From Candidatus Doudnabacteria bacterium (GTDB lineage: Bacteria > Patescibacteriota > Doudnabacteria > UBA920), in contig CAIVSE010000042.1 of assembly GCA_903908535.1 (NCBI GenBank), positions 1-49,337 on the forward strand: DNA of 49,337 nucleotides. Reading direction: 5' to 3'. Every line of letters begins with the position of its first letter. Position 1 is the stretch's first letter. The notes under the pieces are model-generated. The model made no database searches. It worked only from the letters and a program-made list of their open reading frames with translations, and was not told the origin of the DNA. Positions 34,861-49,337 of this stretch are shown one piece after another. Both the position numbers and the translations under genes were made by a program.

Positions 34861-35546
34861 GCAAAAAAAAACTTATTGTCGCTAACTGGAAGCTAAATCC
34901 GATAACTCAAAAGGAAGCTGTAAAATTGGCTTCCCAAATAAATCGGAAGCCAAAAAACAAAGTCGTACTGTGTCCGCCGCATGTATTTTTATCGTCCATA
35001 AATTATCCCAATGTTGGCGCGCAGGATTGTTTTTGGGAAGAAAAAGGCGCGTACACCGGGCAGGTCAGTCCGCTGCAGCTAAAGGCGTTAAAAGTCAGAT
35101 ACTGTATTGTCGGCCACAGCGAGCGGCGGGCAATTGGCGAAACCGACCCGCAGATAAACTTAAAAATCCGGGCGCTGCTTAACCATAAAATTATTCCCAT
35201 TCTCTGCGTCGGCTACGGCACCACGGCCAATGAGGATGATATGGAAGTTACCGACGTTTTAAAACTGCAATTGCAGACGGATTTGGCCGGCGTGGACGCT
35301 TCCCAGGTGGTGGTGGCGTATGAGCCGGTGTGGGCTATTGGCACGGGTAAGACACCGACTGCCGACCATGCAGGCAGGATTGCATTATTTATTAAGACTA
35401 AATTTGGAGTGAAAATCGTTTTGTACGGCGGCAGTGCCAACATATTTAACGCCAAAAGCTTTTTGCAGGAACAACTAGTTGACGGTCTGCTGGTAGGCGG
35501 CGACAGTTTAATTCCAAACCATTTTAACCAGATAATAAATTTATGA
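34857..35546 (+). CDS. tpiA: Triosephosphate isomerase
   Basis: ANWKLN, VGHSERR, AYEPVWAIGTG. Confidence 0.93.
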   Translation: MSKKKLIVANWKLNPITQKEAVKLASQINRKPKNKVVLCPPHVFLSSINYPNVGAQDCFWEEKGAYTGQVSPLQLKALKVRYCIVGHSERRAIGETDPQINLKIRALLNHKIIPILCVGYGTTANEDDMEVTDVLKLQLQTDLAGVDASQVVVAYEPVWAIGTGKTPTADHAGRIALFIKTKFGVKIVLYGGSANIFNAKSFLQEQLVDGLLVGGDSLIPNHFNQIINL

Positions 35547-42518: not shown

Positions 42519-42551
42519 CGGCCTCGGCGTTTTGCCCGGCCGTTTTTTTTT
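42519..42551 (+). terminator. Rho-independent terminator
   Basis: CGGCC..GGC / GCC..GGCCG stem followed by T9. Confidence 0.7.
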
Positions 42552-46327: not shown

Positions 46328-46969
46328 ATGTCTACCAAGAACACGTCTGTAGTCCCCGGAGTAGCAGTTGGAACGACGCTCGCGACTGGCGAGCAGATTG
46401 AGCACATCATGGACATGTGGCGCCGTCGCCTGAAGGGTCGCGATGTGACTCTCGCAGAGGCCAACCACATCATCCAAAACGGTGGTCAATATCTGCCGGT
46501 TATGGACAAGGCCGCCGACGTCCTCGTCGATCAGGTCCGTTCCGACATGCAGAGCACCATTGTCCGCATGGTCCGTAACGTCCGCCGCAACCGAACCGCA
46601 GTTCAGGCCATCAACGACACCGGCCGCGTGCAATATGTGGATTCCTCGGTGGTCGCCACCATGCCAACGGGCGATGGGCCGGAAGATGTGGAGTTGACTT
46701 ACTTCCGCGCAAGCCGCTACCTTTCTGACGACGAGTTGGAATTGGAGTTCGGTAGCCGGGAACTGGTTCCCGACCCGCAGGCACAAGCTGCCGACAACGA
46801 AGCCGACTCCGCGTTTGCCGATGAGCACCCCAATGGGACTCATTGGAAGAACAAAAAGGGTCAGTGGTGCTTCGCCTCGTTCGACCAGGACGTCGTCGAG
46901 CGGCTCGTGCACGTTTGCCGCTTCGGCAACAGGTGGCATGACATTTGGTGGTTACCGTTCGGTTTTTAG
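46328..46969 (+). CDS. DGR target (variable) protein; C-terminus now truncated and altered by IS insertion
   Basis: GAAGGAG SD 7 nt upstream of the ATG. The last 28 codons before the IS junction match TR except at TR adenines. The ORF reads into the IS inverted repeat (..WWLPFGF*). Confidence 0.85.
   Translation: MSTKNTSVVPGVAVGTTLATGEQIEHIMDMWRRRLKGRDVTLAEANHIIQNGGQYLPVMDKAADVLVDQVRSDMQSTIVRMVRNVRRNRTAVQAINDTGRVQYVDSSVVATMPTGDGPEDVELTYFRASRYLSDDELELEFGSRELVPDPQAQAADNEADSAFADEHPNGTHWKNKKGQWCFASFDQDVVERLVHVCRFGNRWHDIWWLPFGF
46869..46953 (+). other. DGR variable region (VR), diversified part
   Basis: The 85-nt gapless alignment to 48534-48618 has 16 mismatches, all at TR adenines. Confidence 0.9.
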
Positions 46970-48170
46970 TGGATATTTTCGTCAGCTTTTTTGTAAGATG
47001 CAACCTTTTTAATACCAAGCTTAGTTAGTATGATAGGCCAGAGGGCCTGTTTTTTTATGGTAAATTCTAGGGAACAGTGTTTGTTTAAATGTTTAAATTT
47101 AGTGTCGCAATCGGTAAATGTTTTAGTTCGTCTTCGAATCATCCATGCGTTTAGCCACCTTCTTGCTGACTTTAAACTTTGGAAACCTTTAATGGTTTTA
47201 AGTCTTCCGTTTAAATGGGAGTTGTAAAGTTCGATTAAGTTAGTGTTGTTGGGACAGTTTTCAAAGTGGAAGTAAGCGAACAGGTCATTGCGTCGTTTTT
47301 CAATGTCGTCCAGGATATTCCAGAGCGTTAGATTTTTGCCAGCGTGGTTATTCCTGACGTGTTTAATTCCTTTAGTAACCTCATCGTCATTGGTGGCTTT
47401 AAACACATGCAGCTTTAATGAATTAAAGAAATGCTGATAAGTAGTTTCTGTTCGGACTCTTAAAATCTTCCTAATATTATCCAAATAGTGGTTGTGGCAT
47501 AACTGTAATCTTGCGTATGGAAAGACCTTGTTTAATGCCTGTTTTATGCCGTCACGGTCGTCGACAACCACAATACGCAGTTTGTACCCCAGGTCTTTAA
47601 TAGTCTGGAAGTAAAGAGAAAAATTTATCTCGTCCTCAGCTAGGACCACTTGGCCATGAGGCAGGTCATGGGACATGTAATCTATGCCAAATAGGAAGGG
47701 TATCTTCCGCTCAAAGTCTTTAATCGCCACGTACTTGCCGTCCAGGATTAATATGCCTGACCAAAGATTCTCATCACATAAACCCTTTGTTAATTCGGTG
47801 TTGTCCGGCAACTGGGATATTTCGGCGATGACACGCGCGTAAGTCTGTGAACTGGATAATTTTTCTTCGTCTCCCAATCTTCTAAAACCTACTCCGTCAA
47901 TGTGTTCTATCCAAAGGTTAGTGGGATTGTTGCCATGGTAAACCGAAAATGAATGCTTACATTTACGACAAATATATTTGTGACTGCGTCCCTGCTTACC
48001 ATTTTTAACAGTTTTACTACTCCCGCACAACGGACAAATTCGGTGGCGTTTTTTTTGACATCATTAATTCTTTCTTAAATATTTTAATGGTTAACTGGGT
48101 TAATACTTGATTTTATCCCTTAAGTTTAGCCAAAACATCCAATTCTATCAACCAAAAACCGAACGGTATC
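46951..48170 (-). mobile_element. IS element (about 1.22 kb) inserted in the VR
   Basis: Perfect 15-bp terminal inverted repeats TACCGTTCGGTTTTT at 46953-46967 and 48154-48168. A 9-12 bp direct duplication CATTTGGTG(GTT) lies at 46942-46953 and 48171-48182. Confidence 0.85.
46966..48030 (-). CDS. DDE transposase with N-terminal CxxC..CxxC zinc finger (IS1/IS256-superfamily-like; family unresolved)
   Basis: CPLCGSSKTVKNGK...YICRKCKHSF; VVVDDRDGIKQALNKVFPYARLQLCHNHY; TNLIELYNSHLNGRLK. The track start is TTG, and two ATGs at 48064/48061 are offset by one frame across an A8 run. Confidence 0.75.
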   Translation of the reverse strand: MCGSSKTVKNGKQGRSHKYICRKCKHSFSVYHGNNPTNLWIEHIDGVGFRRLGDEEKLSSSQTYARVIAEISQLPDNTELTKGLCDENLWSGILILDGKYVAIKDFERKIPFLFGIDYMSHDLPHGQVVLAEDEINFSLYFQTIKDLGYKLRIVVVDDRDGIKQALNKVFPYARLQLCHNHYLDNIRKILRVRTETTYQHFFNSLKLHVFKATNDDEVTKGIKHVRNNHAGKNLTLWNILDDIEKRRNDLFAYFHFENCPNNTNLIELYNSHLNGRLKTIKGFQSLKSARRWLNAWMIRRRTKTFTDCDTKFKHLNKHCSLEFTIKKQALWPIILTKLGIKKVASYKKADENIH

Positions 48171-48204
48171 CATTTGGTGGTTCGCTGGCCGCCGCAAGTC
48201 CTAG
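48171..48204 (+). other. Displaced 3' end of the target gene: duplicated VR bases, GC-rich IMH-like segment and the original stop
   Basis: CATTTGGTGGTTCGCTGGCCGCCGCAAGTCCTAG matches TR 48607-48633 and restores ..DIWWFAGRRKS* when joined to 46953. Confidence 0.8.
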
Positions 48205-48228
48205 GACTCTGGGACGCTCTGTACTCTT

Positions 48229-48244
48229 GTGTCCCCTTGGACAC
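48229..48244 (+). promoter_or_regulatory. Short GC hairpin downstream of the IMH-like segment
   Basis: GTGTCC-CCTT-GGACAC (6-bp stem, 4-nt loop), 25 nt after the original stop. Confidence 0.4.
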
Positions 48245-48533
48245 TTCGAGCCTTGCCCCGATATAACAATCGGGATGAGGCTCTTTTCTTTTGCATAAAT
48301 TATGATAAAATGAATTCAGATAAATTTGAAAATATCCGTGGGTACGCTTGCGGGTTGTTTATCTCGCAGCGCTTGGTGTCAGAATGTCGCTGGTCAAGGC
48401 TCGCGGCAGAGTATTACCAAGCGTAAAGTTCTCCAAAGGGACTTGGTGCAGTTTGCTGGTCGGGTCAATTCCCGCAAATAAAATACAGCCCCAAGAGTAT
48501 TCAAAGGGCAGTGATAAAGATGGTTGATTGCAC

Positions 48534-48633
48534 AATTCGCCACGTTCAACCAGGACGACGACAAGCGGCACGTGAACGTTAACCGCAACGACAACAGGTG
48601 GAATGACAATTGGTGGTTCGCTGGCCGCCGCAA
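48534..48633 (+). other. DGR template region (TR)
   Basis: Matches VR (46869-46953 plus 48183-48197). Adenine-rich, with seven AAY codons in the VR frame. Track ORF 48524-48835 is the TR read in the VR frame, not a gene. Confidence 0.9.
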
Positions 48634-48644
48634 ATTCCTTTGGA

Positions 48645-49010
48645 TTAAACCCCTTCCCCAGACAATGGAGAGGGGGTTTGATTTGCGAGTTGTTTCTGCC
48701 AGCCGCCAATCATATTGCCAACTTTGGTTAGACTTATGGAAAGATTGGCTATTTGCTTGTTGTCTATGGCCTTTAATTCAAAAGCCATTTGCAGAAAGAA
48801 TTTTAGTAAATCCAAGTTTAAGCTGGCTTGCTTGATAGCGCCAAGTTTTTTGTCCTTGCTGGCATAGCCGGTAATCAGAATAAGTTCCGCTTGCTTGGTA
48901 AAAAGCTGGGTTATTTTTTCTCCCAAAGAGTGTTTGAGCAATTTGGGTATGTGTGGAAAATATTGGTACCACAATTGAAAGGCCGAGGAAATTTCCAAAA
49001 CTATGGGCAA
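48645..49010 (-). CDS. avd: Avd-like accessory (four-helix-bundle) protein, inverted relative to TR and RT
   Basis: About 120 aa and helical. ..YQYFPHIPKLLKHSLGEKI...LDLLKFFLQMAFEL...VGNMIGGWQKQL parallels Bordetella Avd ..YLYPIAQSIPRKHG...LAMLRFWLRFLAG...VGRILGSWI (from recall). The track start is TTG. Confidence 0.65.
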   Translation of the reverse strand: MPIVLEISSAFQLWYQYFPHIPKLLKHSLGEKITQLFTKQAELILITGYASKDKKLGAIKQASLNLDLLKFFLQMAFELKAIDNKQIANLSISLTKVGNMIGGWQKQLANQTPSPLSGEGV

Positions 49011-49033
49011 GTTCAGGGTTTCGAAATCCCGTT

Positions 49034-49044
49034 GGGGGGGGGGG
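49034..49044. repeat. G11 (C11 on the avd strand) homopolymer in the avd 5' region and avd-RT intergenic region
   Basis: Counted directly: 7 + 4 G across the 49031-49050 blocks. Confidence 0.95.
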
Positions 49045-49065
49045 TGAATTAAAAGTCATTTTTTT

Positions 49066-49337
49066 ATGAAAAGTCAATTAAATATTAGCTATGAGGAAAT
49101 TATATCGCCGGAAAATTTATTTGCCGCTTGGCAAGAGTTTTTGTCGGGCAAGAGAAAGAAAAAGGATGTGCAGGAATTTGGGTTTAGGCTGACAGACAAT
49201 ATTGTACAACTTTCCGAAGAACTTGCCAATTTTACTTATATTCACAGTCCGTACAGGGCTTTTAACATATCCGACCCCAAACCTCGTAATATTCATAAGG
49301 CCAGCGTGCGGGACAGAGTTTTACACCACGCAATTTA
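49066..49337 (+). CDS. DGR-type reverse transcriptase, N-terminal 90 codons (runs off the window)
   Basis: My translation is MKSQLNISYEEIISPENLFAAWQEFLSGKRKKKDVQEF...YRAFNISDPKPRNIHKASVRDRVLHHAI. It is colinear with Brt ..WENLLDAYRK..YREFLVYEPKPRLISALEFKDRLVQHAL. Confidence 0.85.
   Translation, partial: MKSQLNISYEEIISPENLFAAWQEFLSGKRKKKDVQEFGFRLTDNIVQLSEELANFTYIHSPYRAFNISDPKPRNIHKASVRDRVLHHAI

Follow-up and report, generated by a model that had tools for sequence, protein, structure and literature searches.

The DNA analysed here, hereafter the window, is a 49,337-nt stretch from a Candidatus Doudnabacteria bacterium (assembly GCA_903908535.1, contig CAIVSE010000042.1, positions 1 to 49,337), at the end of which lies a diversity-generating retroelement (DGR) with a template repeat (TR) and a variable repeat (VR), a reverse transcriptase (RT) gene and a gene, avd, for the accessory protein Avd. 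In agreement with an initial annotation of this DNA, coordinates and strands place the avd-like open reading frame (ORF) on the minus strand and VR, TR and RT on the plus strand. Inspection of the sequence likewise confirmed that the spacer between avd and RT holds an uninterrupted run of 11 G (49034-49044 on the plus strand, C11 in the avd sense) and that the ATG at 49059 is out of frame with avd. The features on which the argument turns are the following.

49034..49044, minus strand: homopolymeric tract, C11 in the avd sense, coding for the PPP(P) of the Avd N-terminal leader
48645..49059, minus strand: full avd gene, as inferred, with ATG 49059, leader MTFNS-PPP-QRDFETLN, body from Leu17 and stop codon at 48645-48647; broken by a +1 frameshift within the tract
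49008..49010, minus strand: TTG, Leu17 of the full-length protein and the only canonical in-frame start for the 11-C allele, giving a leaderless 121-aa Avd
49075..49077, minus strand: alternative upstream TTG in the same frame as ATG 49059 (LTFHKKMTFNS...), the equivalent of the 'MxQLNFH' start in relatives; it lies within RT codons 1-4, in antisense

The C11 tract and the reading frames of avd

The tract is the only G or C run of at least seven nucleotides in the 49-kb window, for which base composition predicts about 0.01 runs of at least eleven, and it is located 21 nt 5' of the RT start codon, which sits on the other strand. The avd ORF (48645..49010, minus strand) can be opened by a single codon, TTG 49010, as the initial annotation had noted, and upstream of this codon the avd frame reads stop-LLIHPPPQRDFETLN, that is, stop-LLIH-PPP-QRDFETLN. 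The ATG at 49059-49057 (minus strand) gives MTFNSPPPPTGFRNPEL... in another frame, which belongs to a 99-aa ORF at 48778..49077. When one C is deleted, ATG 49059 gives MTFNSPPPQRDFETLNLPIVLEISS..., continuous with avd. The reading frames thus bear out the earlier statement that 10 (or 13) C would restore the avd frame: the C11 allele is +1 relative to the in-frame C10, with C10 or C13 in frame and C11 or C12 out. Located between ATG 49059 and the avd body, C11 is an in-ORF tract whose length shifts the frame, as expected of a phase-variable locus. Two further homopolymers named in the same annotation, A9 at 34863-34871 and T9 at 42543-42551, are both present. With the RT ATG at 49066-49068 (plus strand), the interval 49011-49065 measures 55 bp, and the true gap from the avd ATG to the RT ATG is 6 bp in the window.

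The translational start of Avd in close homologs

A database search with the corrected sequence identified 15 relatives, nine of which have an N-terminal leader bearing a conserved proline triplet or quadruplet. One of them (P0001, 137 aa, 91% identical) begins MTFKSPPPQRNFETLNLPIV; other leaders read MTFNPPPPQRNFETFNLPIV (P0007), MSFNSPPPQRNF..NLPIL (P0009) and MNTTPPPQRSFDTPNLPVV (P0008), and an M...PPP(P) leader is also found in P0003, P0005, P0010, P0011 and P0013. Because nine relatives carry the leader in frame, we take ATG 49059 to be the homologous start and the window to have one C too many. The proposal that this ATG is the genuine start, put out of frame by the tract, is therefore upheld by homologs with the same N-terminal extension in frame, and what had been named as evidence against it, namely homologs that begin at the TTG with no extension, is not what the nine leaders show. 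In five public Avd entries (P0002, P0004, P0006, P0012 and P0014) the protein starts at the internal Leu/Met or downstream of it, and in three cases the DNA reveals a gene call truncated by an out-of-frame tract (P0002 in locus L002, P0012 in L165-L167 and P0014 in L169).

The DNA of the closest ortholog (L001) carries an in-frame C10 and an intact 137-aa avd, and the TTG codon at Leu17 is present in this in-frame gene as well. The next relative (L002) has C12, out of frame, and is annotated as a 121-aa protein from the same internal Leu codon. A comparison of orthologous loci, which the initial annotation had suggested, thus returns C10, C11 and C12 in three close relatives, in addition to the length polymorphism between otherwise identical contigs presented below. 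Apart from the tract, the avd body of the window bears no lesion and is 91% identical to that of the intact ortholog.

Conservation of the tract in related loci

To place the tract in a wider context, 160 related loci were collected from genome and metagenome collections by means of two C-terminal peptide motifs, a selection blind to the N-terminus; nearly all are Patescibacteria metagenome-assembled genomes, the closest of which are labelled Doudnabacteria. A C run of at least seven at the avd 5' end was found in 127 distinct loci among the 160 retrieved (about 80%), with lengths (number of loci) of 7 (2), 8 (14), 9 (40), 10 (40), 11 (20), 12 (6), 13 (2), 14 (2) and 30 (1). The tract encodes PPP in a disordered leader ahead of helix 1, a leader in which prolines gained or lost are harmless. 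Proline codons in the avd bodies of these loci are evenly used (CCC = 27%), and the 750 kb of sequence that the loci comprise hold exactly one other G or C run of at least eight; since proline usage is even and G/C runs are nearly absent elsewhere, what is conserved is the homopolymer, beyond the proline motif. Over-representation of a tract kept at an orthologous site, another property of phase-variable loci, is thereby observed, and the run in the window coincides in position with those of 126 other loci. The single other run, a G9 at 4320-4328 of L093, lies in a region with no evident gene, about 1.9 kb away from the tract in the avd of L093. The sequence flanking the tract is weakly conserved (at most 0.6 bit), with AACGGAATTT after the run in a subset.

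The longest run, at 3962-3991 of L151, is a 30-nt C run of ten proline codons, out of frame with the upstream ATG. At the same leader position, dinucleotide repeats, (CA)5-8 or (GA)6-7, replace the C run in L123 (~2643), L141 (~3986), L056 (~3963) and L080 (~4011), and the upstream ATG of L141 is out of frame. Such substitutes fit slippage at the level of DNA and do not fit a mechanism specific for proline codons or for a G run.

In 121 of the 127 loci RT is divergent from avd and directly adjacent to it, with the G run mostly 13-25 nt 5' of the RT start codon. In many relatives avd starts at the ATG of MxQLNFH, a motif that is antisense to, and codon-aligned with, RT codons 1-7, so that both strands are coding there. 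In the window and in most related loci the start regions of the two genes thus abut or overlap head to head.

Reading frames upstream of the avd body

Within the 127 loci, the segment from the end of the tract to helix 1 contains no stop in 595 codons of the avd frame, compared with 10 and 33 stops in the other frames, and from the tract to the invariant Trp30 (W30) there are no stops in 2246 codons, compared with 108 and 107. The absence of stops in the avd frame indicates that the tract-to-helix-1 segment is coding. The 55-bp spacer at 49011-49065 had thus been given its correct length in the initial annotation, but it is avd coding sequence and not the divergent promoter region that it had been taken for.

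With the avd frame as reference, the upstream ATG is in frame in 38 loci and has an offset of +1 or +2 in 39 loci each, so that a fixed offset among relatives, the hallmark of programmed recoding, was not found in this set; in 10 further loci each wrong frame offers an ATG and the right frame has none. A measure free of start codons was obtained from the antisense frame of the RT N-terminal match, which was compared with the avd frame. In loci with a C run of at least eight the offset was 0 in 29, +1 in 45 and +2 in 48, whereas in loci with no long run it was 0 in 13, +1 in one and +2 in two (Fisher p = 1.2e-5 for the contrast). The tractless loci read M.Q.NFH...(I/L)PII in one frame and, because they keep this single frame, the frame is randomised specifically where the slippery tract is present.

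An ATG, GTG or TTG at the Leu before Pro-Ile is found in 47 of the 127 loci (37%), a start codon is missing anywhere before W30 in 36 of them, and 33 of 79 out-of-frame loci are without a canonical in-frame start before helix 1. Internal starts are equally frequent or rarer in out-of-frame than in in-frame loci. On these counts the internal TTG was rejected as the normal start as a general rule, although some leaky initiation may occur there. The avd body is intact and conserved in the out-of-frame loci.

Tract-length polymorphism between near-identical contigs

Eight groups of near-identical loci (at least 98.5% identity) were compared, and in five of them the tract varies in length. Of these five, the pair L045/L116 was set aside as unreliable on account of Ns at the tract, which leaves four reliable groups; among the three concordant groups, one is the same assembly deposited twice. 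In one reliable group, L051 has an out-of-frame C10 and L122 an in-frame C9, and the two are identical across 5488 nt except for that base. A second group comprises L163 and L164 (C9, from two samples) and L165-L167 (C10, from three samples), which are 99.8% identical, and the recurrence of each length across samples indicates that the lengths are reproducibly called. In a third, L168 has C10 and L169 has C8. The fourth group pairs L139, with an in-frame C9, and L149, with an out-of-frame C8; over 2332 nt the two differ by the tract, 11 substitutions and one more outside VR; all 11 are in VR at TR-adenine positions, and these changes point to recent DGR activity in a population with a varying avd tract. 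Length polymorphism between otherwise identical genomes, a further property by which phase-variable loci are known, is therefore present in relatives of the window.

Identity and structure of the Avd protein

The frame-corrected protein matches the Pfam family bAvd (PF22296) with 49.2 bits (gathering cutoff 40, E = 8e-13) and the NCBIfam family DivGenRetAVD (NF033474) with 60.1 bits (E = 2e-16), below the equivalog cutoff of 80; it is therefore a member of the Avd family by Pfam and a divergent one by NCBIfam. Position 1 of the NF033474 profile aligns at residue 17, the Leu encoded by TTG 49010. As a stand-in for the window protein we used the AlphaFold2 model of its 91%-identical ortholog P0001, which has a predicted local distance difference test (pLDDT) score of 84 and forms a predicted four-helix bundle (helices 17-36, 39-65, 68-94 and 100-127). 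Residues 1-14 are modelled as disordered (pLDDT <50), with helix 1 beginning at residue 17. The best Foldseek matches of this model are 8UB7 and 4DWL (TM-score 0.89-0.91, root-mean-square deviation 1.3-1.4 A), so that the bundle is superposable on bAvd.

Other components of the retroelement

The remaining features of the DGR and of its surroundings in the window are listed below.

48536..48633, plus strand: TR, a 98-nt repeat shared with VR; 14 mismatches, all at TR adenines
46871..46953, plus strand: VR, 5' part, at the 3' end of the target gene 46328..46969
48183..48197, plus strand: VR, 3' part, a GC-rich end GGTTCGCTGGCCGCCGCAA resembling an initiation of mutagenic homing (IMH) element, shared with TR and split off by the insertion sequence (IS)
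46950..48170, minus strand: IS256/Mutator-type IS of ~1.2 kb inside VR, with its transposase at 46969..48030
49066..49337, plus strand: probable DGR RT gene, 5' part, 90 codons with no stops, cut by the window end and divergent from avd
49201..49229, minus strand: candidate avd promoter, by consensus match alone, with the sequence TTGGCA-17-TACAAT, directed towards avd from within the 5' coding part of RT
48641..48685, plus strand: stable hairpin (-28.1 kcal/mol, z = -3.6) on the TR-sense strand, directly 3' of TR

The TR/VR pair is that of a DGR, and the claim that its mismatches are A-specific on the plus strand holds for 14 of 14 TR-VR differences, which fall at TR adenines. VR lies at the 3' end of the target ORF with its GC-rich, IMH-like end, the two parts being separated here by the IS. 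The transposase of the latter was identified by matches to Transposase_mut (6.5e-13) and the IS256 family (1e-17) and has a zinc-ribbon N-terminus. The element has 27-nt terminal inverted repeats (46949-46975 / 48146-48172) and is flanked by a direct repeat, CATTTGGTGGTT, part of which may belong to the ends of the element. Its insertion swaps the last seven residues of the target, from ...WWFAGRRKS* in the uninterrupted form to ...WWLPFGF*. The IS severs the VR body from the GC-rich IMH-like end, and irrespective of tract length the DGR of the window is therefore unlikely to be diversifying its target now. In the closest ortholog, the target gene at 6543-6701 of L001 (minus strand) has a premature TAG in VR where TR has AAG (...FGRGGH*RFVLVDRRGIVWHGDWWFAGRRKS*); this is a nonsense codon of the adenine-mutagenesis type captured in an assembly.

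The 90-codon RT fragment gives no significant Pfam match on its own. Its N-terminus is near-identical to that of the RT of L001, a 338-aa protein with PF00078 (RVT_1) that begins MKSQLSISYQEIISPENLFAAWQEF. The order of TR (48536-48633, plus), avd (48645-49059, minus) and RT (from 49066, plus) is that of Architecture B3, TR-(avd)-RT, which makes up 90% of a set of DGRs of the candidate phyla radiation (CPR), according to the passages of Wu et al. (2018, PMC5758913) covered here. The inverted avd, to which the initial annotation had drawn attention, is thus a known arrangement of CPR DGRs, as those same passages describe it; the window shares its gene order and inverted avd, and the divergent avd/RT pair is present in the window and in 121 of the 127 related loci. 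The passages mention no homopolymeric tract, frame-shifted avd or head-to-head overlap of avd and RT starts.

The site TTGGCA-17-TACAAT is the sole good sigma-70-like match on the avd strand, and across the tract itself the window yielded no pair of sigma-70-like hexamers. The 55-bp interval from the TTG to the RT ATG codes for avd. Either each of the two genes must have its promoter within the 5' coding region of the other, or RT must be read from a long TR transcript antisense to avd. The hairpin at 48641-48685 overlaps the last codons of avd, which encode a disordered C-terminal tail, and the same inverted repeat occurs in L001 and L002; by analogy, the hairpin may be equivalent to the segment of the Bordetella DGR RNA, downstream of TR, to which Avd binds. 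L001 and L002 are 79-86% identical to the window over the 1.17 kb that run from the VR end to the RT start, with TR and avd in between. Conservation with both extends to some 330 nt of non-coding DNA that separate the VR end from TR (48200-48535, plus strand). An Rfam scan returned two sub-threshold matches, to RT-7 and RsaJ, at 24.7 bits each; the former, an RT-associated Rfam motif matched at 48378-48434, has a gathering score of 116.8 and is therefore far from being reached.

Discussion

We consider it probable, on the evidence of the sequences, that the conserved and hypermutable tract is a slipped-strand switch on Avd, present in the window as an OFF allele. Slipped-strand mispairing at replication would alter the tract by 1-2 nt, and the change in length would toggle between a frame that yields full-length Avd (ON) and one that yields a short nonsense product (OFF). 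In the Bordetella phage system, cDNA synthesis required the complex of bRT and Avd together with the DGR RNA, and these were also sufficient for it (Handa et al. 2018, PMC6182149). If a requirement of this type holds here, an Avd switch would gate mutagenic retrohoming, and it would do so stochastically in the population. Such a locus would amount to a contingency switch set upon a diversity generator. For the broader proposition, that across Patescibacteria a C8-C14 tract (sometimes (CA)n/(GA)n) in the avd leader toggles Avd, so that a stochastic subpopulation diversifies in a two-tier form of bet-hedging, with RT expression perhaps tuned too, we see the case as evenly poised. The slipped-strand ON/OFF switch put forward in the initial annotation is accordingly supported in part, by the conserved tract, its frame states and its DNA-level polymorphism.

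Several points weigh against this interpretation. In-frame alleles are not enriched (24-30%), which a frame-agnostic mechanism would predict equally well. In the structural model, an Avd begun at Leu17 keeps the whole four-helix bundle, so that an 'OFF' allele may retain some function. Every sequence compared comes from a metagenome assembly, in which long G/C homopolymers are error-prone, as the Ns at the tract in the discarded pair illustrate, and the tract lengths are those of assembled sequences, not of reads or clones. Searches with the 121-aa Avd (L or M start) and with the neighbouring 133-aa protein found no record of the window's own population in the collections searched, and the eleventh C of the window is that of a single assembly. 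Finally, VR is already split by the IS in the window, and the frameshift could belong to decay of the element.

The enrichment argument leads directly to an explanation in which the genomic frame is neutral, RNA polymerase stuttering on the 9-12 nt run and/or ribosomes shifting on CCC-C, with the tract serving to keep Avd low. Long homopolymers cause transcriptional slippage and CCC-C is the classic +1 shift site for tRNA-Pro, and the near-equal frequency of the three offsets, the lack of enrichment of the in-frame state and the intact, conserved avd of out-of-frame loci would all follow. We nevertheless regard this mechanism, the foremost of the alternatives, as rather doubtful. Classical programmed recoding sites hold one offset among relatives, whereas all three occur here, and a shift of the ribosome in one direction rescues just one out-of-frame class, which is insufficient because the two classes are equally frequent (39 and 39). 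Slippage is, moreover, generally weaker on G/C than on A/T runs, replacement of the run by (CA)n/(GA)n is unlike a mechanism based on proline codons, and the tract differs in length in the DNA itself between identical backgrounds. A further alternative, which the initial annotation had left open, is a consensus error in the window, whereby the true tract would be C10, avd would be intact and the extra base would be an artefact of homopolymer sequencing or assembly. One surplus base in an 11-nt G run is a typical error and the closest ortholog has C10; we still think it unlikely. As a general explanation it fails, given that about two thirds (62-69%) of the 127 independent loci are out of frame as opposed to 3 of 16 without a long tract, the tractless loci being in frame, and that one near-identical group supplies three independent C10 contigs and two of C9. 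Judged by record names, long-read assemblies contribute just 3-4 of the loci; even if the call in the window were wrong, the tract would stay a conserved variable element.

The remaining explanations concern the start of Avd and the state of this particular element. It is conceivable that Avd begins at the internal TTG 49010 or at another non-canonical start and that the G run is a cis element of the divergent RT gene (promoter spacer, 5' untranslated region or Shine-Dalgarno-like sequence), the avd frame being incidental. Homopolymers in promoter spacers are a known device of phase variation, the G run keeps its distance of 13-25 nt from the RT start in most of the 121 divergent loci, and the NCBIfam profile begins exactly at Leu17, after a disordered leader. 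The avd frame between tract and helix 1 is, however, open in 127 of 127 loci while the other frames contain stops, and the start-codon counts given above (37% with a start codon at the Leu; 36 of 127 with none before W30) speak against a general internal start. The tractless loci have the upstream ATG in frame, which argues that the leader is translated. As to the RT, the flanks of the tract are conserved to no more than 0.6 bit and the window offers no sigma-70-like pair across it. We therefore hold this explanation to be decidedly improbable; a cis role of the G run for RT may exist as an additional function, one that leaves the translated leader unexplained. Very improbable, too, in our estimation, is decay of this element, in which the IS would have destroyed VR and made avd dispensable, the frameshift being a plain loss-of-function mutation in a gene turning into a pseudogene. 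The IS256-like element does part VR from the IMH-like end and alter the C-terminus of the target, and avd is out of frame. Against this, the avd body is unlesioned and closely matches its intact ortholog, TR and the RT 5' end are intact, the VR differences are still of the adenine type alone, and the sole defect falls at a site that varies in all relatives, of which two thirds combine intact DGRs with an out-of-frame avd.

A slipped-strand switch on Avd would resemble the G/C-tract contingency genes of Campylobacter jejuni, Neisseria and Haemophilus, in which a run of ~8-12 nt near the 5' end of an ORF undergoes 1-2 nt indels that toggle the frame, many 'off' alleles are found in genomes, and the tract is over-represented and polymorphic in length between otherwise identical genomes (homopolymeric-tract phase-variable systems are reviewed in PMC8355987 and PMC5084427). 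In those host-associated pathogens the switched genes are mostly ones for surface structures or restriction-modification enzymes; in the present case the product is the accessory protein of a target-mutating retroelement in free-living or episymbiotic groundwater Patescibacteria. Unlike in the pathogens, the tract is kept at one orthologous position although Avd is only ~30-57% identical to that of the window, and it is known from assemblies alone. A further parallel is provided by phasevarions, in which phase-variable DNA methyltransferase genes control regulons, so that a repeat switch on one gene has wide downstream effects; in the present case there is no methyltransferase and the downstream effect would be genetic, through adenine mutagenesis of VR, and not epigenetic. 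Transcriptional slippage is established for Thermus dnaX, IS elements and poly(A) rescue in endosymbionts, mostly on A/T runs and with a fixed frame relation. Together with shifts at tRNA-Pro sites, these cases are alike in that an in-ORF homopolymer opens an extra frame without a change in DNA, which could explain intact out-of-frame genes; they differ in that the present run is C/G, occurs in all three genomic offsets and is polymorphic in the DNA itself. The Avd of BPP-1 (4DWL; ribonucleoprotein 8UB7) has the same four-helix fold, belongs to the same Pfam family and is likewise a partner of a DGR RT, at an identity of ~20%. The BPP-1 gene is co-oriented and upstream of TR (avd-TR-brt), unlike the inverted avd of the window. 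To our knowledge, no homopolymer or PPP leader occurs in BPP-1 Avd.

A full-text literature search on homopolymers, slippage or phase variation in DGRs or Avd, and on phase variation in Patescibacteria, returned no such report, the CPR-focused study of Paul et al. (2017) being outside its reach. Homopolymer phase variation on a DGR accessory gene, conserved across a phylum-level radiation, would accordingly appear to be new, as far as assemblies can tell. It would also be the first contingency locus described in Patescibacteria, to the extent that the literature search shows. For the annotation of these elements, the tract has the consequence that gene callers truncate or could miss avd in about two thirds of them, and surveys may therefore under-count Avd or class such DGRs as defective.

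Uncontrolled adenine mutagenesis of a functional gene is costly, hence the interest of a switch placed on Avd. If the tract acts in this way, it would provide a simple answer to the question of how DGRs are regulated in their largest reservoir, the CPR/Patescibacteria, and the length of the tract in individual reads would become a metagenomic measure of the fraction of cells competent for diversification, one that could be compared with the microdiversity of VR.

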